Under the pieces are notes generated by a model. It was not told where the DNA came from. It worked only from the letters and a program-made list of their open reading frames with translations, and ran no database searches. This document shows, in pieces, positions 4,297 to 63,954 of a stretch of DNA of 64,000 bases (the first letter of the stretch is position 1; the number at the start of each line of letters is the position of its first letter). The stretch comes from Gemmatales bacterium (GTDB lineage Bacteria; Planctomycetota; Planctomycetia; Gemmatales; HRBIN36), in contig JBEPZY010000008.1 of NCBI GenBank assembly GCA_041640595.1, positions 66,566 through 130,565 of the forward strand, given 5' to 3'. The position numbers and the translations under genes were made by a program.

Positions 4297-4716
4297 ATGA
4301 CGTTTGAATATCAGCGCCGTGTCGAATTCGCTGACACCGACCTGGCAGGAGTAGTGCACTTCACCAAGTTTTTCCAGTACATGGAAGAGGCGGAACATGC
4401 GTTTCTGCGTTCGCGTGGACTTTCGGTAGTGATGCGCTATGATGGCGAACAACTGGGCTGGCCACGTGTGGCAGCGGCATGTGAGTATTTCCGCCCGGCC
4501 TATTTTGAGGACGTGCTCACCATTCGCCTGCAGCTGACCCGCATCGGCAGCAAAGCGCTGAGTTACACGGCGGAGTTTTATCGGGGTGAGGAACTGCTTG
4601 CCCGCGGTCAGGTGACGACCTGTTGCTGCCGCATGGAAGCCAATGGTCGGATGACTGCCATCGAGCTCCCGGCCGAAATCCGTGCGAAGTTGTCCGCAAA
4701 CGAATCGGCTGGTTAA
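4297..4716 (+). CDS. acyl-CoA thioesterase, 4HBT/YbgC family
   Basis: 139 aa. Hot-dog fold signature RVEFADTDLAGVVHFTKFFQYMEEAEHAFLRS. Confidence 0.85.
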   Translation: MTFEYQRRVEFADTDLAGVVHFTKFFQYMEEAEHAFLRSRGLSVVMRYDGEQLGWPRVAAACEYFRPAYFEDVLTIRLQLTRIGSKALSYTAEFYRGEELLARGQVTTCCCRMEANGRMTAIELPAEIRAKLSANESAG

Positions 4717-5933
4717 ATCCTGACCGCGCCGCCGTTGATGCGAATGACCTGACCGGTGATAAACCCCGCCTCCGAAGAAACCAGCCAGCAGGCCACCGCT
4801 GCGACATCTTCGGGAGTCCCCCAGCGACGTAACGGCGTTTCACCAACCGCCCGCTGCTGCCAGTACTCCGACGCCTGTTCTGCCCAAGCGGTGCGAATCC
4901 AACCGGGAGCCAGACAGTTGACGCGCACCTGCGGCGCCAGGCTCAGGGCCAGGCTGCGGGTGTAGGCCATCACTGCTCCCTTGACCAGGGCAAACAACTC
5001 ACCACTGTCGCCTGCCATGCCGGTTTCCGCCTGATCCCAGCCCATGTTGAGAATTACCCCCCAACCGCGAGCCTGCATGCGTGGCCCGACCTCGCGGCAG
5101 AGTCGCACCGTGCCCAGCACGTCGGTTCGCCAGAGCAATTCGAGTTTGGCTTCGTAGGGCAATCGTCGCGTCTCGCCGGTGAGGATGTCGGCACCGGCAT
5201 TGTTGATCCAGAAATCCACGGGGCCCACGTGCGACCAGACCTCCGCAACGAATCGTCGGCAGGCATCCGCATCGGTCAGGTCGGCGTAATAACACCACGC
5301 CTGCACGCCAGACGCGCGAGCCTTTTCTGCGACCGTCTCCGCCTGGTTGCGGGAACGGTGAGCGTGAATCACGACGTCGGCACCGCGCTCAGCCAGAGCC
5401 AGAGCGATGGCGCGACCGATCCCGCTCGAAGCTCCCGTTACCACTCCGCGACGACCGTGTAAATCCTGCCGGGTGAGTGTAGCCAGCAGTTCGACCACCG
5501 TGCGGCCCAGAACAGGATGCACCAGGGTCGGAGCAATCTCTGCCAGAGGTCCAAGCACAAAACGCCGCTGATGTAAACGGGGATGCGGTACGGTCAGCTC
5601 CGCCGTTCGGATCACCTCGGAGCCGTAGAACAGCAAATCCAGGTCGAGCGTGCGCGGAGCATTGGCCTCGCCCCGTTGCCGACCATGCTCGGCTTCAATT
5701 CGCAGCAATTCGCGGTGGAGCTGCTGCGGCGACAGCTCCGTCTCTACAGCGCAAACAGCATTCAGGTAGCGGGGTTGATCGGGCGGACCACCCGCGGGAT
5801 CAGTTTCCCAGAATCGCGACACCGCCACCAGCTTCACACCGGGCGTCTGCCGTAACCGTTCCAGGGCCGAGTTCAGGTTCGCCTGGCGGTCGCCCAGATT
5901 GCTTCCCAATGCGATGTACGCTTGCACTGCCAT
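4713..5933 (-). CDS. folK: fusion protein: 6-hydroxymethyl-dihydropterin pyrophosphokinase (HPPK) plus short-chain dehydrogenase/reductase
   Basis: The N-terminal ~160 aa carry HPPK motifs (YIALGSNLGDR, PRTLDLDLLFYG, PHPRLHQRRFVLGPLAEIAP). The C-terminal ~245 aa form an SDR with Rossmann motif VVTGASSGIGRAIALALAERGADV and NNAG. Confidence 0.85.
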   Translation of the reverse strand: MAVQAYIALGSNLGDRQANLNSALERLRQTPGVKLVAVSRFWETDPAGGPPDQPRYLNAVCAVETELSPQQLHRELLRIEAEHGRQRGEANAPRTLDLDLLFYGSEVIRTAELTVPHPRLHQRRFVLGPLAEIAPTLVHPVLGRTVVELLATLTRQDLHGRRGVVTGASSGIGRAIALALAERGADVVIHAHRSRNQAETVAEKARASGVQAWCYYADLTDADACRRFVAEVWSHVGPVDFWINNAGADILTGETRRLPYEAKLELLWRTDVLGTVRLCREVGPRMQARGWGVILNMGWDQAETGMAGDSGELFALVKGAVMAYTRSLALSLAPQVRVNCLAPGWIRTAWAEQASEYWQQRAVGETPLRRWGTPEDVAAVACWLVSSEAGFITGQVIRINGGAVRI

Positions 5934-6256
5934 CCGTTAGCACCCTGGATGTTCGCAGTCTGTGACAAAGGCGGTTGCCTGTTGATGCGGTAAGCTTCTG
6001 TCCTGCCGCAAAAATGCTCCCGCGGACACAGGGATATTTCCGAAAAACGGGCGAATCAGAGCGGCACCAGGGCGCAGGGACCCCGTTGCGTCCGTCGCTG
6101 CGTGTGTGGTTGTTCTATAAAATATGGCCGCCAGCCTGTGGCGGTTCGATGAACCTGGCAGGCGATGTGCTGGGGACAAATGTGAAAACGGCTGCGGGAT
6201 CAGGGATGACCGGAGGTCACGGCGAAGACACATCTGTTGCTCGATTCGGCAGCACA

Positions 6257-7075
6257 ATGCGGCCCAAGAATTCCGTTCCGCAGGTGCTGATTAGCGTCCG
6301 CGATGTTGCGGAAGCAGAAGAAGCATGGTACGGTGGGGCGCGATGGCTGGATATCAAGGAACCGCAGCGTGGCTCGCTGGGTGCCTCGGATGAGCACGTG
6401 CAAGTGGCAATTGCCCGGAAATTCGCCGGTCGGGCCTGGCTCAGCGTTGCCGCGGGAGAACTTCTGCACCCCGCCCGCGCACCGAGTATTCCCTGCTGGG
6501 CAGTGAAAGTCGGCCTGGCCGGATGTGCCCACGAGCTCAACTGGCCACAACGATTCGAACAGATGGCGGAAAGCCTCAGGCGAAGTACGTCCTTTCGCCC
6601 GTCGTTTCACCAGGTAGCCGATAGCCTGGCGCTGAATGCACGAGCCACCTCGACCGCACCCTGGCTGGTAGCGGTGGCGTATGCGGACGCGGAAAGCGCA
6701 GGTGCCCCGGAAGTGGCAACGGTGCTGGAGACGGCAATTACTCGCGGCTGGCCTGCGGTCATGATTGATACCTGGAGCAAGAATGGCCAATGCCTTTTCG
6801 ATTATCTCACTCCGGAGTTCCTCGCCGAGTGGTCTGGCCGACTGGGCCAGGCAGGGATAGCGTTCGGTCTGGCCGGTTCGCTTCGGTGCGAACATGCGGA
6901 CCTGCTCCAGGCGATCGCGCCTTTTATCGTTGCGTTTCGGGGGGCCGTTTGCCGAAATCACCAGCGCGAACAATCCCTTTGTCGCGATCGGGTGCGCCAG
7001 TTGCTCTGTCGTTTCCACGGCGGCGAAACTCCGGGTCGGCGTGAGCAGGTGCTCGATACCACCTGCCGGCAATGA
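6257..7075 (+). CDS. DUF556 / MfnB-like protein (4-(hydroxymethyl)-2-furancarboxaldehyde-phosphate synthase family)
   Basis: Start trimmed to the ATG at 6257 (MRPKNSVPQ). VLISVRDVAEAEEAWYGGARWLDIKEPQRGSLGAS matches the family N-terminal signature as I recall it. The track ORF (5975) adds an implausible 94-aa leader. Confidence 0.7.
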   Translation: MRPKNSVPQVLISVRDVAEAEEAWYGGARWLDIKEPQRGSLGASDEHVQVAIARKFAGRAWLSVAAGELLHPARAPSIPCWAVKVGLAGCAHELNWPQRFEQMAESLRRSTSFRPSFHQVADSLALNARATSTAPWLVAVAYADAESAGAPEVATVLETAITRGWPAVMIDTWSKNGQCLFDYLTPEFLAEWSGRLGQAGIAFGLAGSLRCEHADLLQAIAPFIVAFRGAVCRNHQREQSLCRDRVRQLLCRFHGGETPGRREQVLDTTCRQ

Positions 7076-7111
7076 GCATCGGGCCTTCCGAAGCAAGGGC
7101 CGGAAGAGTGC

Positions 7112-8095
7112 ATGAAAACAGTGCAGCACAGTCGTACGGACTCCGGTGTTCTACGCATCGCTGCGCCGGCAAAAGTGAATCTTTTCCTGGAAGTGCTCGG
7201 TCGGCGCGACGACGGTTTCCATGAGATTGAAACGTTGATGGTGCAGGTCGGGCTGTGCGATACTCTGAGCGTCGAGGAAACAGCCCCGGCACAGGTGCAT
7301 CTGGAGGTGATCAAGGGCGGTGATTGTGAGGAGTTCGGTGTTCAGCTGCCTGACTCTGGGCGGGACAATCTGGTCTGGCGGGCCGCCGAATCTTTGCGCC
7401 AGCATACGCAATGCCCACGCGGTGCCCGTATCGTTTTAGAAAAGCGCATCCCCATCGGTGCCGGGCTGGGAGGAGGTTCGAGCGATGCGGCTGCGACTTT
7501 GCGCTTGCTTGATTTACTCTGGCAGCTTGCCTTGCCCACCGAGGAACTGATGTCGCTGGCGGCCAGTCTGGGCAGTGACGTACCGTTCTTTCTCAACGGG
7601 CCGGTCGCCTGGTGTCGCGGTCGTGGTGAACGGGTCGAACCTTTCTCCGGTATGTTTCCGTGCTGGTTCCTGTTACTGTCGCCGGCGATGCTGGTGAGCA
7701 CGGCTCGCGTGTACCAGCATGTGCGGATTCCCGAGCAACCGCGGTCCGGTTCTGAGTTGGTCGTTCGTTTGCGGGAGAAAAACGTCGAGGCCTTGCGCTC
7801 CGCGCTCTTCAATCGCCTGGAAGAAGCGGCTCTGGAAGCCTATCCGCAATTGCGAGCAATACGGGAAACACTTGATGTCTGCGGATTAACGCACGCTCAG
7901 TTGAGCGGCAGCGGTGGCACTTTTTTCGCAGTGTTTGCAGTTGCCGAAGAGGCACACCAGGCCGCCGAAGATTTCCAACGCCATTACGCGAGTCGCGGTG
8001 GTGTGCCGGTGCGCACAATAGTCGTACCTTCGTTCCTCAACGCACCTACGCCGGAAGGCGAACCGCCAGAATCGGCCCAAAACGATCCGCGATAG
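7112..8095 (+). CDS. ispE: 4-diphosphocytidyl-2-C-methyl-D-erythritol kinase
   Basis: APAKVNLFLEVLGRRDDGFHEIETL and the GHMP kinase motif PIGAGLGGGSSDAAA. Confidence 0.93.
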   Translation: MKTVQHSRTDSGVLRIAAPAKVNLFLEVLGRRDDGFHEIETLMVQVGLCDTLSVEETAPAQVHLEVIKGGDCEEFGVQLPDSGRDNLVWRAAESLRQHTQCPRGARIVLEKRIPIGAGLGGGSSDAAATLRLLDLLWQLALPTEELMSLAASLGSDVPFFLNGPVAWCRGRGERVEPFSGMFPCWFLLLSPAMLVSTARVYQHVRIPEQPRSGSELVVRLREKNVEALRSALFNRLEEAALEAYPQLRAIRETLDVCGLTHAQLSGSGGTFFAVFAVAEEAHQAAEDFQRHYASRGGVPVRTIVVPSFLNAPTPEGEPPESAQNDPR

Positions 8096-13111: not shown

Positions 13112-14536
13112 ATGTCCTGCCGCAGCGTAGTTTCACCTGGCTGCCCGGAGTACGGTGTTCTGGATTCCTGGAGCCGCCGGGAATTTCTTCGCGTCGGTGC
13201 CTTGAGTGCCTTTGGGCTTTCCCTGCCTCAGCTTTTCCGTGCTGAGGCGCAGGCTTCGGCATACGGCGAGACGGTGCGGCCCCGGGCGAAGGCGTGTATC
13301 CTGGTCTTTTTGTCCGGCGGGCCGAGTCATTACGAAACCTTCGACCCGAAACCGGAAGCGCCAACGGAGTACCGCACGATTTTCGGCGTGGCGCAAACAC
13401 CGATTCCGGGCGTTTATTTGTGTGAACATCTGTCGCGGTTGGCACGGTTGGCCAATCGCTTTGCCCTGGTGCGGAGCATGTCGCACAAATTCACAGGACA
13501 CTTCGGCGGCCATCGTTACGTGCTGACGGGGCATTTCGCTCCCGGTAACCCCGACCAGCCGGCTCGTCCCGATGACAAACCGGGACTGGCTTCGTTGGCG
13601 GCCAGGTTCCTGGCGCGGCGCAATGTCGCCATGCCCCCCACGTTCATGCTGCCGTGGGTCGCCACCGATCAGGGAAGCGGAGCCAGTGGCGGGATGCTGG
13701 CTGGTACGCTCGGCAAACAATACGATCCGGTGGTCATCGAAGCCGACATGAACTCGCTGAAAAATCCCAACCAGCCACCGGTATTCCGTGTGCCGGAATT
13801 CGCCTTGCAGCCGGATGTTACCCCGCAACGACTCACCGAGCGCCGGAGTTTACTGCAAATCGTGGATCAGGCCCGGCAGGAACTCGCTCAGCAAGCTGCG
13901 CTGGCCGATATGGATACCTTTTACCGCAAGGCGTTTGAACTGCTCACCTCCAACCAGATTCGTGAAGCCTTCGATCTGGACAAAGAACCGGCTAAGCTGC
14001 GCGAAGAATACGGCCTGAATGCGTTTGGACAGTCGTGTCTGCTGGCCCGCCGGCTCATCGAAAGGCAGGCTCGGTTCGTGCAGATCAATTTCTCCCGCAA
14101 CGTGACCCAGGATCGCTATGGCTGGGATACGCACAACAAAGGCCGCGAGACCCTCAAAGACCATCTCCTGCCCAAACTCGATGCCGGACTCAGCACTTTG
14201 CTGACCGATCTGGAATCGCGCGGGCTGTTGCAGGAGACCCTGGTGGTGGCGATGGGCGAGTTTGGCCGCACACCTCGCGTCAAGCCGGACGGTGGTCGCG
14301 ATCACTGGCCGCAATGCTACTCCATTTTGCTCGCCGGCGGCGGTATCCACGGCGGGCTGGTCTATGGCAGTTCCGACAAGCATGGTGCCTACCCGGCCAG
14401 CGATCCCGTCGAACCACGACAAATCATCCTGACGGTGCTGACGCTCCTGGGCATTCCCACGGCGATGCCCGATCCGCAGGGCCGCGTGGTGCCGCTCTTC
14501 GATGGCTATCACCCGGTGGAACGGCTTTATTCGTGA
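13112..14536 (+). CDS. DUF1501 domain protein (sulfatase-like) with Tat signal
   Basis: Twin-arginine leader SRREFLRVGALSAFGLSL. DUF1501-type motifs FLSGGPSHYETFDPKP, GEFGRTP and GRDHW. Confidence 0.92.
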   Translation: MSCRSVVSPGCPEYGVLDSWSRREFLRVGALSAFGLSLPQLFRAEAQASAYGETVRPRAKACILVFLSGGPSHYETFDPKPEAPTEYRTIFGVAQTPIPGVYLCEHLSRLARLANRFALVRSMSHKFTGHFGGHRYVLTGHFAPGNPDQPARPDDKPGLASLAARFLARRNVAMPPTFMLPWVATDQGSGASGGMLAGTLGKQYDPVVIEADMNSLKNPNQPPVFRVPEFALQPDVTPQRLTERRSLLQIVDQARQELAQQAALADMDTFYRKAFELLTSNQIREAFDLDKEPAKLREEYGLNAFGQSCLLARRLIERQARFVQINFSRNVTQDRYGWDTHNKGRETLKDHLLPKLDAGLSTLLTDLESRGLLQETLVVAMGEFGRTPRVKPDGGRDHWPQCYSILLAGGGIHGGLVYGSSDKHGAYPASDPVEPRQIILTVLTLLGIPTAMPDPQGRVVPLFDGYHPVERLYS

Positions 14537-53043: not shown

Positions 53044-53210
53044 CTGCTTCTTATGCTGGGCATCTCATTGTATGCGGGCATTGCCGGACGATGCCATGCG
53101 GTGCCGACAACCCTTTTTACGGCACGAGGTTCGGCGCACACGCACCGAACCTCGCCAAAAGGAGAAGGTGCAGAAAAATCGGAGAGTCTAGCTATTGCTG
53201 CCGGGTGAAA

Positions 53211-58800: not shown

Positions 58801-59110
58801 GGATTTGGCATCATTATACTCGATCGAAGAGACGCAATAAAGCAGAATTTATCACGCCCCCATCTGCCCCGGCGAGAGCATGAACCACCCAGGCCGTAAC
58901 CGTGCAGTTTACTAAAGCACCGAACCAGTGGCGGATGTTCGACCAGTAACAGCTATCTGGTCGGTGCAGAAAGCACCAGCGAATCTCCGGTGGCCTGGCT
59001 GCCACTGTGGAAAGGCTAGCTGACACAACGGTAAGCCGTGATTCGATACCAAATACATACCGGGGCGGGACAACCGATGTGCAGGCCGGCCAAGTTCGCA
59101 ATGGGGTGCA

Positions 59111-59212
59111 GGATAACGATTTATTCTGCGTCGGAGCATCGCGCGAGTCCACCAACTGAAGCGGAGGTCGCAACAACGGTAACGATTCATTGAGCGTCGG
59201 AACATCGCACCG
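59111..59212. repeat. intergenic direct-repeat pair, 66-bp period
   Basis: GGATAACGATTTATTCTGCGTCGGAGCATCGCGC (59111) and GGTAACGATTCATTGAGCGTCGGAACATCGCAC (59178). A weaker third copy starts near 59046 (CAACGGTAAGCCGTGATTCG). Confidence 0.75.
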
Positions 59213-59294
59213 GTCAGGATGTTTGATGGGCGTGAGGTTGGCGTGGTTGGTAGCCAGCCGGACTTGACAGGGCCGATAGTTTGTATAGTGTATA

Positions 59295-59304
59295 TGTGTA
59301 CACA
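59295..59304. promoter_or_regulatory. perfect 10-bp palindrome TGTGTACACA in an AT-rich patch upstream of the polymerase cassette
   Basis: Embedded in TTGTATAGTGTATATGTGTACACACATT. TTGACA lies at 59264-59269 and TATAGT at 59284-59289 (a short 14-nt spacer). The patch is about 80 nt upstream of the ATG at 59385. GTATAGTGTA recurs at about 59471. Confidence 0.3.
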
Positions 59305-59384
59305 CATTCAGCGGGATGCTTCGATCCTTCTACCGGCTGGTCAGGTTCTTTTGAAACTGATGCCTTCCGAAGCGGAGTCAGCCG

Positions 59385-60842
59385 ATGACGTGGACAACTG
59401 CTTCGAGTCCCCTGGTCTCTGCGAAGCCAATAACGATCGAGGAGGTCGGCAGCGTAGCGGTTCCCTCTTCGTATAGTGTACGCAGGAACATTATATCTTC
59501 GAGCCACGACCAGGCATGCTTATCAACAAAGCCAGATGTCGCTCCTGACCTGGAATCGTCTGTGCAGGGGCAACCAGCGGACCAGCGCAGCTGCGCCCTG
59601 GAGCTTCAGGATGCGGTTCGAACCTCGCTACGCTCGGACGGACGCATAGTGCTGCACTTAGATATAGACGCCTTTTTTGCATCCGTCGAGCAGTTAACAG
59701 ATTCCCGATTACGGGGTCGGCCGGTCGCGGTAGGCACAGGCGTGGTAGCCAGCTGCAGTTATGAAGCACGCCAGTGGGGTGTACGCACCGCCATGCGCCT
59801 CAGTGAAGCTCGCCGACTTTGCCCGGAACTAATCGTCGTGCCGGGATATTATCCACGCTATGAAGCGATTGCCCGACAGATATTCGCCTTCTGCCAGCAA
59901 TTTACTCCGCAGATCGAATGTGCCGCTCTCGACGATTTTTATTTAGATTTAGGCGCTGCCGATGTTAGTGAGGGAGAACGTATAGGTCGGCAATTGCGCC
60001 AATGGGTGCGGGAGGTGTTGCGACTAAGTTTATCCATCGGTGCCGGAAGTTGCAAACTGGTTGCGGAAGTAGCCACCCATCAGGCAAAGCCCGGTCGTCA
60101 GGTTCAGGTATTTCCAGGGCGCGAACGTGATTACCTGGCACCCTGGCCAGTGACGATTTTACCAGGCGTCGGACCACAAGCTGCGCGTCAGTTAGTTCGG
60201 CTTGGTCTGCGCTATGTGGGGGAACTGGCGCAGGTTTCCGGGCGATTATTAGCGGGTTTGTTCGGCTGGCGCGGACGATGCTGGCATCTATATGCACAGG
60301 GGATCGATCTTCGGCCCGTCCAGCCGCATCACCAACCGCTAAGTATTAGCAGGCGCACCAGTTTTGCACCACCGGAATCGGATCCGATGTTTCTGCGCGC
60401 CATGTTGATTTATCTGCTGGAGCGTGCAGCAAGCTGGATGCGCTGGCAACAACGGCGCGCTGCTGGCTTAGAAGTCGCAGTGCGCTATGGCGACGGTGTT
60501 AGCCTCGCTAAATCATTTCGCCTCCGACCGCCAACCGATCACGACGCCACATTGCGCCCACTGGCATTAGAAGCTTTGGCTCGCTTATTAGAAAGGCGGC
60601 TCCCTATCCAACTATTAGCGGTTACATTACGGCCCTTAGCTCCTCACGACGGTCAGCTCTGGTTATATGGCGATCCCCAGCAGGAGCGGCAGAATCAATT
60701 GCAGCAATGGAAGGACGCCATCCGGCAGCGGTTCGGCCATTTATCTTTGACCAGCGGTGAGGAATTGCTGCTGCTGCTGCTGCAACGTCTGCCCCACGAT
60801 CGGCACCGCTTGATTTTGCGCACTCCGTGTTTGACACGCTGA
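59385..60842 (+). CDS. Y-family DNA polymerase (DinB/ImuB-like) of a dnaE2 mutagenesis cassette
   Basis: GGAG upstream of the ATG. LHLDIDAFFASVEQ, SYEARQWGVRTAMR and ALDDFYLDL (DD where DinB has DE). About 90-aa N-terminal extension. The stop is 13 nt before dnaE2. Confidence 0.88.
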   Translation: MTWTTASSPLVSAKPITIEEVGSVAVPSSYSVRRNIISSSHDQACLSTKPDVAPDLESSVQGQPADQRSCALELQDAVRTSLRSDGRIVLHLDIDAFFASVEQLTDSRLRGRPVAVGTGVVASCSYEARQWGVRTAMRLSEARRLCPELIVVPGYYPRYEAIARQIFAFCQQFTPQIECAALDDFYLDLGAADVSEGERIGRQLRQWVREVLRLSLSIGAGSCKLVAEVATHQAKPGRQVQVFPGRERDYLAPWPVTILPGVGPQAARQLVRLGLRYVGELAQVSGRLLAGLFGWRGRCWHLYAQGIDLRPVQPHHQPLSISRRTSFAPPESDPMFLRAMLIYLLERAASWMRWQQRRAAGLEVAVRYGDGVSLAKSFRLRPPTDHDATLRPLALEALARLLERRLPIQLLAVTLRPLAPHDGQLWLYGDPQQERQNQLQQWKDAIRQRFGHLSLTSGEELLLLLLQRLPHDRHRLILRTPCLTR

Positions 60843-60855
60843 CTGGAAGCTCGAT

Positions 60856-63800
60856 ATGCCGACGCGCCTGGTCGCCTTACATGTTCATAGCTGGTATTCC
60901 CTGCTGGAGGGCGTGGACTCGCCGCAACGGTTGCTGGAAATGGCCGCTGCGCGGGGCTATATAGCACTGGCGTTTACCGATACTAATAACCTTTACGGTG
61001 TGCCGGCCATTTATGATCTGGCCTGGCAATACGGGGTGCGGCCGATTTTTGGCGCATGTTTGCGTCAACCTGAACCGCAGAATGCTTGCCGGCCTGAAGA
61101 AATGCCGGCCACGGATGCACCGATACAGCCAGTCCGTTGCACGGTCCTGATTTCCGAGCCGGAGGGCTATAGCAACCTATGCACTATATTAAGCCGCCTC
61201 CATGTGCACTCTGATCCACTGCCAGAGTTGCTGCTGGAATATCATGAGGGTTTGCAGGTATTAGTGGATAATCCCCAATGGCTTGCGGCATTGCAACCTG
61301 TATGGCGTGAACGTTTGTGGGCGGAGTTGATTCGACCCGGAAGGTCTATAAAGCAAGAACGGGCATTATTAGAAACAGCAGCAGCCCGAGGCATTCGGGT
61401 TGTAGCCAGTTGGGCGGTTCATTTCGCTGAATCACGGGGCTGGGAGGCGTTTCGCCTGCTTCAGGCGATTCGCTATCGGAAAATGGTAGCTCGTTTGCCC
61501 AAACGCCTAGGGGTCACGCCAGCACATTACCTACTTAGCGCAGCAGAAGTATGGCATCGGTTTGCAGACATCCCTGAAGCCCTGGTACATGCAGAACAAC
61601 TGGCGGAACGCTGTCGCTCCGATGTCTTGCCTCGACAATTAGTCGTACCCGCACCGCCGGAATACTGGTCTGGCCCGGCTTCCCAGCAAGCATGCTTGCA
61701 GCAATTACGGCATCGGTGTCTCCAGGCTCTAAGTCAATATCCTGGCGATCTTGATGAAGCTGACGCTCGGTTACAGGAGGAACTAAACATCATCGAACAG
61801 CGTAACCTGGCCGGTTATTTTCTTGTGGTCCACGAAATCGCCCAGGAAGCCCGGCGCCGAGGTTATCCGATGGCCCTGCGTGGTTCTGCGGGAAATTCGC
61901 TGGTATGTTATCTTCTCGGTATTACCGACATAGACCCGCTCCGTTATCGCCTTCCATTGGCGCGTTTTCTGCATGCGGGTCGAGGCGATTTACCAGATAT
62001 AGACCTGGATTTTGACTGGCGTGTTCGGGACGAAATCATGGCCTGGATGGTGCAGCGCTTCGGGGCAGAACATACAGCACAGGTGAGCTCCCATCTGTTT
62101 TTCCAACCTCGTTCCGCCTTTCGTGAAGCTGCCAAGGCCTATGGTTTATCGAACTCGCAAATATCTCGACTTCTGGTCCGTCTGGAGGCACGCCTGGAAA
62201 GCTTAGTAGATAGACAATCCGAACTGTCCAGTACGCCGACATGGCAATTGTTGTGCCAGGCGGGAAAGGAGCTTCTACCGGAAACCTGCTGGGCACGAAT
62301 ATTAGAAGCGACGCACTGGCTTCTCGGCAGACCCTATCATCTTTCCCTGCATCCCGGTGGTATGGTACTTACACCGGATCCGTTGTGTCGGCATGTACCG
62401 CTGCAACGTGCGCCGAAAGGCGTGATCATGACGCAACTGGATAAAGACGGTGTCGAACGCATTGGCTTAGTGAAAATAGATGTTCTGGGGAATCGGGCTT
62501 TAGCCACCTTGACAGAAGCACGATGTTTAGCCGGTTCGAAGGTGCAAATATCCGAAACTGACGCCGACACTTTACGACTCTTACAGCGAGGCGATACCCT
62601 GGGTGTAAATCAACTGGAATCGCCTGCCATGCGTCATTTACTGGTCCAGTATCAACCCCAGACGCGGGACGATCTAATAAATGTGCTGGCCCTGATTCGC
62701 CCGGCAGCAGCATCTATAGGCAATAAAGAGCTGTTTCTTCGCCGACGGCGTGGCTTAGAACCACCGCCGCCATTGTCCGCACAGTTAGAGCCAATCCTGG
62801 GTGAAACCTGCGGGCTGATGATTTTTGAGGACCAGGCACTTTTGGCGATCCAGGCGGTGACGGGTTGGCCAGCGGCTGAGGCCGATCAGTTACGCAAGGC
62901 CATCAGCAATGGCTTGCCTGCCGACCAGGCCGCTGATTGGTGGCAGCGCTTCGTGCGAGCCTGTCGAGTTCAGGGTGTTAGTCGGGAGATCGCCGAGCAC
63001 ATCTGGACGCAACTGGCCCGTTTCAACGCCTATTCTTTCTGCAAAAGCCACGCGGTGAGCTATGGCTGGCTGGCGTGGGAAGTGGCCTGGTATAAGGCCC
63101 ATTATCCCCTGGCATTCTGGACAGCAGCACTTAATAATAACCTGGGCATGTATCCGCTCTGGCTCTATATCGAGGCTATCAAGTGGTCTAATATACACTT
63201 ATTGCCGCCGTGTGTGAATCGCTCGGATCTAACGTTTCGGATAGATGGCGATGGTATTCGCGTGGGTCTGGGTAATATTCGGGGCGTGCCACGGACTATA
63301 TTGACAGCGATTGTGCGAGAACGTGAGCGGCGGGGGCCATTTACCAGTATCCGTGATCTGTGTCGTCGAGTCCATATCGGGCCGGAAGCATTGGCACAAC
63401 TCATTCAGGCGGGGGCATGCGATTTTGCTGGTCTATCTCGTGAGGAACTGTTCTTGGAGGCCAGCTTGTATTTTCGCCGTTATGATGAAACGGCTATCTT
63501 CGCAGGGCACCTGGAGCATCCACCTCCTTTGTTGCCGTGCATAAATCGGGCCCCGGCTCCAGCAACTAAGCAGAGCCTGGCTGAGGCGGTCAGACAATGG
63601 GAGACGCTTGGTTTTGTTATAGAGGTGCCATTGATGGCCCTGTTCCGGCCATGCTTACCGTCTGGTCTGGCCGATAGCCGAGCCCTGCAGGAACCGCCGG
63701 GTGCGCGCCTGACCCTGGCGGGGCTGGTAGCTGCCAGTCGCATTACCACGACGACGGATGGAAAACCCATGCAGTTTCTTACCCTGGCGGATGAATGGGG

Positions 63801-63954
63801 ATTGGTTGAGGTGACGCTATTCCCCGATATCTGCCCTATCCTGGCGAGTCCTGCACTGGGGCCTTATCTGGTCACCGGACAAATTGAGGAGCATCTAGGT
63901 GCTCGTACATTGAGAGCCATTCAAAGACCGGAACTGTGCATGCAGTGTTCCTGA
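60856..63954 (+). CDS. dnaE2: error-prone DNA polymerase III alpha-like, DnaE2
   Basis: 1032 aa (DnaE2-sized). PHP domain LHVHSWYSLLEGV, polymerase core with ...PDIDLDF... and a C-terminal OB region. Tightly linked to the Y-family gene. Confidence 0.92.
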   Translation: MPTRLVALHVHSWYSLLEGVDSPQRLLEMAAARGYIALAFTDTNNLYGVPAIYDLAWQYGVRPIFGACLRQPEPQNACRPEEMPATDAPIQPVRCTVLISEPEGYSNLCTILSRLHVHSDPLPELLLEYHEGLQVLVDNPQWLAALQPVWRERLWAELIRPGRSIKQERALLETAAARGIRVVASWAVHFAESRGWEAFRLLQAIRYRKMVARLPKRLGVTPAHYLLSAAEVWHRFADIPEALVHAEQLAERCRSDVLPRQLVVPAPPEYWSGPASQQACLQQLRHRCLQALSQYPGDLDEADARLQEELNIIEQRNLAGYFLVVHEIAQEARRRGYPMALRGSAGNSLVCYLLGITDIDPLRYRLPLARFLHAGRGDLPDIDLDFDWRVRDEIMAWMVQRFGAEHTAQVSSHLFFQPRSAFREAAKAYGLSNSQISRLLVRLEARLESLVDRQSELSSTPTWQLLCQAGKELLPETCWARILEATHWLLGRPYHLSLHPGGMVLTPDPLCRHVPLQRAPKGVIMTQLDKDGVERIGLVKIDVLGNRALATLTEARCLAGSKVQISETDADTLRLLQRGDTLGVNQLESPAMRHLLVQYQPQTRDDLINVLALIRPAAASIGNKELFLRRRRGLEPPPPLSAQLEPILGETCGLMIFEDQALLAIQAVTGWPAAEADQLRKAISNGLPADQAADWWQRFVRACRVQGVSREIAEHIWTQLARFNAYSFCKSHAVSYGWLAWEVAWYKAHYPLAFWTAALNNNLGMYPLWLYIEAIKWSNIHLLPPCVNRSDLTFRIDGDGIRVGLGNIRGVPRTILTAIVRERERRGPFTSIRDLCRRVHIGPEALAQLIQAGACDFAGLSREELFLEASLYFRRYDETAIFAGHLEHPPPLLPCINRAPAPATKQSLAEAVRQWETLGFVIEVPLMALFRPCLPSGLADSRALQEPPGARLTLAGLVAASRITTTTDGKPMQFLTLADEWGLVEVTLFPDICPILASPALGPYLVTGQIEEHLGARTLRAIQRPELCMQCS

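Follow-up and report, generated by a model that had tools for sequence, protein, structure and literature searches.

Does a gene pair whose codon usage looks foreign have to be of foreign origin? The question is raised by an operon near the end of a 64-kb stretch of Gemmatales DNA (contig JBEPZY010000008.1; the whole stretch is called the window below), in which a gene for a Y-family DNA polymerase is followed by dnaE2. An earlier sequence-only reading had seen the unusual codons of the two genes, here together called the cassette, and offered two explanations: horizontal gain from a lower-GC donor, or rare codons that throttle the translation of a mutagenic polymerase. Our analysis confirmed the codon anomaly. 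Vertical inheritance of the operon is well supported, and selection for poor or conditional translation of both mutagenic polymerases is, tentatively, the leading explanation of the bias. The parts of the locus are as follows:

59385–60842, plus strand: full-length Y-family open reading frame (ORF) of 485 codons
59649–60842, plus strand: Y-family DNA polymerase gene (PolY, DinB-like), 397 aa from GTG 59649
60856–63954, plus strand: dnaE2, DnaE2-type C-family polymerase gene, 1032 codons
58801–59648, plus strand: non-coding regulatory region with the operon leader of about 350 nt; GC 0.555, TA dinucleotide odds ratio (rhoTA) 0.82

Codon Usage and Composition of the Cassette

The cassette was compared with 36 curated genes of the window, which served as the only background. 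The GC content at third codon positions (GC3) amounted to 0.536 in PolY and 0.532 in dnaE2 versus 0.651 ± 0.026 in the background (minimum 0.599), which corresponds to z values of −4.5 and −4.6 and places the cassette outside the normal range of the window genes. The atypical codon usage and the A/T-richer third positions of the sequence-only reading are therefore real. TTA supplied 19 of the 60 leucine codons (32%) in the 397-codon PolY gene and 23/144 (16%) in dnaE2, which shares the bias as had been claimed, versus 5.6% in the background (z = +6.7 and +2.7, respectively; Fisher p for TTA = 2.6e-11). Enrichment of TTA in the 485-codon frame was reported correctly, but not its extent: instead of 18 TTA codons, this ORF (GC3 0.55) contains 20 among 66 leucine codons, with 19 left when counted from GTG 59649. 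Typical genes of the window show GC3 of 0.60–0.70 and 0–7 TTA codons each (greedy ORF table), and the DUF1501 gene (13112–14536), previously cited as having a single in-frame TTA, has exactly one.

The shift is not limited to leucine. NTA codons as a class were over-represented (z = +5.9 for PolY and +4.0 for DnaE2), and the cassette/background ratios reached 3.6 for ATA, 3.65 for TTA, 2.6 for CTA and 2 for both GTA and TAT, with TAC reduced to 0.23. At two-fold degenerate sites, C/(C+T) was 0.37 in the cassette versus 0.57 in the background, and G/(A+G) was the same in both. The GC content at four-fold degenerate sites (GC4) was 0.59 versus 0.70. The rhoTA of the cassette, 0.91, exceeded not only the background value of 0.55 (4.3-kb chunks: standard deviation 0.06, maximum 0.70) but also that of intergenic DNA (0.73), and the dinucleotide-signature distance (delta*) between the cassette and the host was 107 versus 38 ± 15 within the genome.

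The anomaly extends from 58.8 to 63.95 kb. It sets in within the non-coding 58.8–59.65 kb, in agreement with the earlier placing of its start in the 58.8–59.4 kb intergenic region and its continuation beyond, and its end coincides with the stop codon of dnaE2. The next gene, PFK, which was read from two contigs of the same species (L087 and L090), has GC3 of 0.61 and rhoTA of 0.68; PFK and the later genes are host-like. Since both boundaries are sharp, a regional (terminus-like) AT gradient was rejected. The cassette has its atypical composition enclosed by sharp boundaries in common with horizontally acquired genomic islands.

Descent of the Operon

Relatives are designated by their loci: L001 is the sister species, L006 bacterium HR36, and L004 and L005 make up the sister subclade together with HR36; besides the same-species contigs L087 and L090 we used a 96% relative (L091) and the Gemmataceae loci L088 and L089. 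Identities of PolY to its relatives descended through 99, 84, 77 (HR36), 75 and 75% and then dropped to 57%; those of DnaE2 ran 99, 77, 69, 69 and 69%, followed by at most 55%. Der, a housekeeping GTPase encoded in the same window and the one marker used as a phylogenetic control, gave 100, 89, 78, 78, 76, 76 (HR36) and 77%, then at most 66%. The pairwise matrices and neighbour-joining trees of PolY, DnaE2 and Der were congruent. The trees grouped the window with the sister species in one subclade and HR36, L004 and L005 in the other, and the two were jointly monophyletic relative to Gemmataceae. Such congruence of both polymerases with Der is expected under vertical descent and speaks against horizontal gain.

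The neighbourhood and the level of divergence were also compared. The PFK gene lies downstream of the operon in both the window species and L001; the two PFKs share 87% protein and 77.7% DNA identity, and the DNA identity of the cassettes is 75.3%. The four-fold-site divergence (K4) between the window and L001 was 1.01 for PolY, 1.15 for DnaE2 and 0.90 for PFK. GC1, GC2 (GC content at first and second codon positions) and the amino-acid composition of the cassette proteins match those of the orthologues. Of the hallmarks of mobility, neither tRNA genes nor integrases nor flanking (direct) repeats were found at the locus. The start of dnaE2 lies 13 nt past the PolY stop codon, and the polY–dnaE2 order with a gap of 13–15 nt is kept in the window, L001, L004, L005, L006 and L087 (five lineages). 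The scan of metagenomes yielded contigs of the same and of the sister species and no lineage between 86% and 77% identity. The approximately 57%-identical homologues from Gemmataceae (L088, L089 and a P0105 contig) have polY solo or divergent from dnaE2; hence, the tight polY–dnaE2 operon is specific to the HR36-like clade. More distant relatives of PolY, among the GTDB matches listed, occur in Acidobacteriota and Bacteroidota; close relatives from Gemmatales were not among these matches.

Altogether, the trees congruent with Der, the sister species sharing both the bias and the PFK neighbour, and the lack of mobility hallmarks at the locus speak against the horizontal gain from a lower-GC donor put forward earlier, and we find no support for a distant low-GC donor. 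Vertical transmission of the operon within the HR36-like Gemmatales is well supported, as is its position beside PFK already in the ancestor of the window and sister species. The one version of transfer that is still possible is an old replacement by the copy of a close relative, unsampled and much richer in AT.

Age and Maintenance of the Bias

The cassette of L001 shows an equal anomaly, with GC3 of 0.57/0.59 versus 0.66–0.74 in its flanks, TTA making up 18/64 and 38/156 leucine codons, rhoTA of 1.03 versus 0.52 and an NTA value of 0.30 versus 0.06. TTA occupies the same position in the window and L001 in 26 cases, with 11.5 expected (p = 5e-8); i.e., 26/39 TTA codons were retained in the sister species, whereas retention versus L004–L006 was at the chance level. 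Because the anomaly is equal in L001 and the TTA sites are shared, the bias is older than the split of the window and sister species.

An old bias may be a decaying relic or a maintained state. Both cassettes lie approximately 0.09–0.10 below their hosts in GC4. The S/W (G-or-C versus A-or-T) states at conserved four-fold sites were nearly independent between the window and L001; in DnaE2, both were A/T at 59 sites versus 48 expected. According to our estimate, passive amelioration would need a cassette GC4 of approximately 0.4–0.5 at the time of the split, under that of any clade genome sampled (at least 0.61). Recent synonymous changes were also counted by direction. In dnaE2 (three strains, minority rule, counted by hand) there were 20 AT>GC and 15 GC>AT changes, and in polY (polarised with L091 or L001) 18 and 24, respectively. 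The cassette total of 38 AT>GC and 39 GC>AT implies an equilibrium GC3 of approximately 0.53, whereas the host regime would give approximately 47:30 in the cassette (our binomial p ~0.03). The third positions of the flank (ribE and the pssA-like gene) gave 10:10 with an implied equilibrium of approximately 0.65. The window/L087 differences polarised by L001 alone offered too few sites (10 versus 11), and the polymorphism of six contigs of the sister species was not usable for the direction of substitution. The balanced recent substitutions thus give no sign of amelioration, which suggests that the composition of the cassette is at a gene-specific equilibrium and is not decaying to that of the host.

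Retention in excess of expectation between the window and L001 was 0.53 for TTA versus 0.24 overall, 0.22 for CTG and 0.13 for TTG. The codon usage of EF-G in L001 was like that of other genes, so low expression is an unlikely cause of the bias.

Some observations on variation accompany these data. The six contigs of the L001 species, which come from different samples, contained no variable site in the 4.3-kb cassette (L001 10196–14492) and 7 variable sites in approximately 7 kb of non-repeat flank and leader; in view of the small numbers, the invariant cassette may reflect low diversity or a sweep. The sister locus is flanked by dispersed/tandem repeats of approximately 120–430 nt, 78–96% identical between copies (L001 3800–4420, 6790–7560 and 19030–19590). 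The same repeat family has many copies in L092 (1600–7240) and holds most of the apparent polymorphisms among the sister-species contigs. Within the window species, 16/56 variable sites of dnaE2 across three strains were non-synonymous.

The Two Polymerases

PolY homologues are approximately 400 aa long and span 82% of the 485-codon ORF. Since the DNA homology to L001 begins exactly at 59649 and the PolY protein of HR36 starts with MLHLDID, GTG 59649 is most likely the true start of PolY, and the 485-codon ORF was rejected as the actual gene in its favour. The first 88 codons of that ORF (59385–59648) are probably untranslated. Its seeming N-terminal likeness to the sister species coincides with the DNA of the proximal operator described below; upstream of 59649, no DNA homology to L001 was detected.

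PolY consists of IMS and IMS_C domains (Pfam). In NCBIfam, models of DNA polymerase IV matched it best, with scores under the cutoffs, and DNA polymerase IV is also the name given to its homologues from Gemmatales, Gemmataceae and 'bacterium HR36'. The protein still contains the catalytic motifs LHLDIDAFFASVE and ALDDFYLD, and LHLDxDAFFA and AALDDxYL do not vary across the 24 family members aligned. PolY aligns with the solved, active Pol IV 7yll at E = 4e-40, and the active-site motifs of the two line up. The third catalytic acidic residue is Asp in place of Glu (DD for DE) family-wide. The C-terminal part carries a clamp-binding-like QLWLYG (60654–60671), of which only the leucine and the F/Y position are common across the family, then a segment resembling the RecA N-terminus (60684–60764; family consensus CKDAIRQRFGF) and LRTPCLTR, invariant in the family. 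After the clamp-like motif approximately 56 residues remain, and 25 after the RecA-like segment. In hhalign, the best local match of the family tail to E. coli RecA covered residues 3–35 (P = 0.03 for full RecA and 0.002 when the N-terminus was taken by itself); with BLASTP, the similarity of the tail to RecA was not significant. DnaE2 contains PHP, pol3-alpha, palm (DIDLD at residues 381–385), finger, HhH and OB domains. In NCBIfam it lies between the DnaE and the 'error-prone polymerase' models and reaches the cutoff of neither.

To judge from these motifs, the Y-family protein is apparently an active polymerase and not ImuB; the ImuB label given to it previously does not fit a protein that keeps the catalytic acidic residues and has no ImuB-C. 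The locus is not an imuA-imuB-dnaE2 cassette because PolY looks active, the ImuB-C domain is missing and no imuA adjoins it. DnaE2 groups in genomes without imuA/imuB are known to pair with active or inactive PolY bearing the RecA N-terminal motif, and the Bacteroidetes PolY2–DnaE2 system combines two apparently active polymerases (PMC6511836, PMC12926913). The assignment of the operon to the ImuA/ImuB-independent PolY–DnaE2(–RecA) translesion/mutagenesis modules is well supported. It is a new planctomycete member of a class already described, and imuA is missing because the operon is of this type; its absence, presented in the sequence-only reading as an anomaly, is ordinary. The observation itself was correct: between pssA and the Y-family gene there is no imuA, and upstream we found only the phosphatidyltransferase gene and a probably non-coding ORF. 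Neither imuA nor lexA adjoins the operon, and a Pfam scan of 39 ORFs of the window revealed no imuA, imuB or lexA, in line with the earlier statement that the window has no lexA.

In one of the same-species metagenome contigs, dnaE2 may be interrupted. A GAA>TAA change in L090 at 7046–7048 (window 62617–62619, dnaE2 codon 588) would cut DnaE2 at residue 587; this in-frame stop could mean that the strain has lost the function, or it could be an error of the consensus.

Operator-Like Palindromes Upstream of the Operon

Starting from an 11-mer that three relatives have in common upstream, we arrived at a 20-bp palindrome that occurs twice in front of the operon:

59264–59291, plus strand: promoter-like element TTGACA, 16 nt, TAGTGT, in our own reading, below the scanner threshold
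59286–59305, either strand: distal operator-like palindrome TAGTGTATATGTGTACACAC, which fits TAGTGTA-N6-TACACTA and overlaps the −10-like hexamer
59474–59493, either strand: proximal operator-like palindrome TAGTGTACGCAGGAACATTA, 175 nt before the start codon
58814–59305, minus strand: 163-codon ORF antisense to the operon, probably not a gene

With up to three mismatches to the 20-bp TAGTGTA-N6-TACACTA allowed, the 64 kb contain two matches, both upstream of the operon, versus 0.25 expected. In six related lineages (seven loci), the distal site lies 258–363 nt and the proximal one 106–175 nt before the start. L001 has an equivalent promoter-like arrangement (TTGACA, 17 nt, TAGTGT); the sigma-70 consensus scan of the leader reported no promoter, and no Rfam match to the leader was obtained. 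The SOS box of E. coli is TACTGTA-N6-TACAGTA. Because the motif found here differs from it only at the symmetric positions 3 and 18 (a C/G swap), we infer LexA control of the operon. Among the papers searched, no published LexA motif for Planctomycetes was found.

Explanations of the Codon Bias

The mechanism we propose has two levels. A LexA-like repressor would hold the operon off until DNA damage; the clamp and RecA would then bring in PolY via its C-terminal motifs, and PolY would work with DnaE2. The codon bias (NAU over NAC, NTA codons raised 3–5-fold, TTA up to 32% of leucine codons) would have arisen in the lineage of the ancestor and, confined to the operon and its leader, would be kept at an equilibrium of its own, with gene-specific selection holding the two mutagenic polymerases to poor or conditional translation via scarce-tRNA codons. 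Selection for poor or conditional translation leads among the explanations, at a probability we would put somewhat short of even. The scarce-tRNA mechanism is the leading guess and the weakest link of the explanation. The full scheme, in which the operon is kept at a foreign composition and its translation gated by tRNAs that are scarce or modulated by stress (such as tRNA-Leu(UAA), Ile-lysidine or queuosine-family tRNAs) as a second catch atop the SOS-type operator, appears rather doubtful. We know of no description of translational gating for DnaE2 modules or for Planctomycetes. The rare-codon throttle of the sequence-only reading is favoured by the balanced substitutions and by the retention of TTA at approximately twice the rate of average codons, and disfavoured by the absence of the bias from the sister subclade and Gemmataceae.

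That absence belongs to a series of observations that weigh against a bias maintained by selection and against the mechanism built on it. The cassette of L004 is only mildly biased and that of L005 not at all; that of HR36 (L006 10001–14379) is even GC-richer than its flanks (GC3 0.62 versus ~0.55), and the Gemmataceae homologues have GC3 of 0.95–0.96 like their hosts. Because the sister subclade and Gemmataceae do without the bias, rare codons are not a conserved regulatory feature of the family, and selection for them would be lineage-specific. A discrete outlier with sharp boundaries and foreign-looking dinucleotides is the classical signature of horizontal gene transfer (HGT), and the dinucleotide signature of the window and L001 cassettes is closest to the flanking DNA of HR36 (delta* 68 and 39). 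The upstream neighbour of the operon differs between the window and L001, and the context of the cassette is different in L004, L005 and L006. The retention of TTA could also stem from heterogeneity among sites, ATT being kept as well (13/13). The test of substitution direction comprises 77 changes polarised by parsimony or minority rule with a tiny flank control, the samples are small and the background is limited to 64 kb, in which there are no tRNA genes. The similarity of the PolY tail to the RecA N-terminus is weak, and the pair of palindromes are candidate LexA operators, assigned to LexA by their likeness to the SOS box.

Some of the same features would fit an ancient xenologous replacement or first gain, before the window–sister split, from an unsampled, considerably AT-richer relative that branched near the same node, the bias being an incompletely ameliorated relic. 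We regard this as possible, although less probable than selection. It would account for a discrete outlier whose sharp boundaries are those of the operon with its regulatory region, for a dinucleotide signature far from the host (delta* 107–138) and near the HR36 flank, and for the differing contexts and upstream neighbours listed above. That host codon usage is independent of expression is in its favour as well. Low-GC Gemmataceae do exist (L008, GC 0.43), and among the matches listed from other phyla, departures of PolY from its flanks in GC3 are frequent (z as high as +6). On the other hand, the trees and identity ladders of the proteins agree with those of Der, and the locus has no tRNA, integrase or flanking repeats. 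With K4 of approximately 1 and the S/W states nearly randomised, replacement needs a GC4 at the split below that of the sampled clade; the recent changes show no AT>GC excess (38:39), and GC1, GC2 and amino-acid composition bear no low-GC imprint.

The balance of substitution directions at a lower GC3 would also fit a gene-specific mutational regime, in which an operon silent save during damage escapes transcription-coupled repair or undergoes error-prone resynthesis and drifts to an AT/TA-richer neutral equilibrium. The shift of the non-coding leader and the roughly constant GC4 deficit of 0.09–0.10 in both species fit this as well. We consider it improbable: G/(A+G) is unchanged while C/(C+T) falls by 0.20–0.24, unlike under strand-symmetric GC>AT pressure, K4 is only slightly above that of PFK, the cassette is more TA-rich than intergenic DNA, and the operons of L005 and L006 stand under the same operators without the shift. 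A composition more extreme than that of intergenic DNA also speaks against relaxed translational selection, i.e., expression so weak that codon optimisation is absent and the mutational bias exposed. SOS-repressed genes are expected to be rarely expressed, and the C-ending two-fold codons, a class usually favoured in translation, are indeed depleted, more mildly so in the L004 and L005 cassettes. However, the highly expressed EF-G of the sister genome does not stand out from the other genes there, and within the narrow background (GC3 standard deviation 0.026) none of the 36 genes approaches the cassette, which makes this explanation the least credible and highly improbable.

The HR36 cassette has rhoTA of 0.71 versus 0.86 in the flank. 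Among the distant matches listed, the GC3 of PolY was at or above the flank mean in 57 of 58 Bacteroidota/Acidobacteriota loci, opposite to the window; examples are Algoriphagus loci L016, L019, L020, L024 and L028 (0.59–0.65 versus 0.36–0.41). These offsets may come in part from the selection of matches most like a GC-rich query.

Comparison with Known Systems

The closest counterpart of the window operon is the putative DnaE2B–PolY–RecA mutasome of Bacteroidetes ('PolY2' and DnaE2, e.g., in Cellulophaga algicola; Timinskas & Venclovas 2019, PMC6511836; NAR 2026, PMC12926913), which likewise places two active-looking polymerases side by side. Both lack imuA and ImuB-C, and behind a clamp-like motif the PolY tail of each continues into a stretch that resembles the RecA N-terminus, weakly so in the window. 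Among the matches listed, Bacteroidota genes are the nearest to the window PolY after those of Planctomycetota and Acidobacteriota (32–37% over ~365 aa). The window module differs in coming from Planctomycetota (HR36-like Gemmatales). The LRTPCLTR tail, which the window family has in common with its Acidobacteriota relatives, is unaligned in most Bacteroidota matches; the third acidic residue is Asp, not Glu, and in Gemmataceae the pair is often uncoupled or divergent.

With ImuA–ImuB–DnaE2 (ImuA'BC) of Mycobacterium, Caulobacter and Pseudomonas, the operon shares the coupling of DnaE2 to a Y-family homologue with clamp-like and RecA-N-terminus-like motifs; damage-inducible, mutagenic lesion bypass would be expected of it. 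Unlike that system, it has neither ImuA nor the ImuB-C beta-barrel, and its PolY keeps the active site, whereas ImuB is catalytically dead. The upstream palindromes resemble the SOS box/LexA control of dinB and umuDC in E. coli in that a 20-bp palindrome with a TA-rich centre overlaps the promoter of a translesion polymerase; the differences are two sites 125–252 nt apart in a long leader and a putative repressor, with no lexA in the window. The concentration of host-rare TTA in a stress-related operon, at positions partly conserved between two species, recalls bldA/TTA control in Streptomyces and the codon-biased 'modification-tunable transcripts'. Unlike in bldA/TTA control, the host has 59% GC and TTA is not near-absent from it, TTA is enriched as one element of a broader NTA/NAU shift and not as a few sentinel codons, and the next related subclade does not show the bias.

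Neighbouring Genes and Rejected Reading Frames

Upstream, the operon is preceded by a CDP-alcohol phosphatidyltransferase gene (pssA-like) and then the 163-codon ORF. The latter has no match in Pfam or NCBIfam; in the same-species copy its GC2 (0.58) exceeds GC1 (0.53), a pattern not like that of coding DNA. It is absent from L001, and the stretch 58924–59178 does not align with the 96% relative L091 (megablast). With no family match, a non-coding-like GC pattern and no conservation, it was rejected as imuA, lexA or an accessory gene, and an 85-codon ORF (59219–59476) was rejected on the same grounds.

The contigs L087 (1–687) and L090 (1–1590) carry different DNA at their upstream ends and are collinear with the window only from 57157 on; this DNA in L090 includes an ORF with GC3 of 0.80. 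In L091, a more distant relative, collinearity already starts at 53117, which points to a rearrangement between strains immediately upstream of ribE. Elsewhere in the window (4713–8095) lies a cluster of an HPPK–short-chain dehydrogenase fusion, 4-HFC-P synthase (methanofuran-type) and GHMP kinase, which recalls the tetrahydromethanopterin (H4MPT)/methanofuran-like one-carbon (C1) cofactor genes known in Planctomycetes.

Significance

The textbook signature of HGT, comprising low GC3, rare codons, deviant dinucleotides and sharp boundaries, is found here on a gene pair for which trees, neighbourhood and divergence all point to vertical descent, and island callers based on composition would mislabel the PolY–DnaE2 operon. 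The cause of a codon bias in one small clade is a modest compositional puzzle on a known system. The ImuA-less PolY–DnaE2 module is extended to a thermophile-related clade of Gemmatales, and TAGTGTA-N6-TACACTA is a candidate SOS operator for Planctomycetes that could be used for regulon prediction. If selection does maintain the bias, it would amount to translational gating of mutagenic polymerases and would bear on how the cost of inducible mutagenesis is limited.

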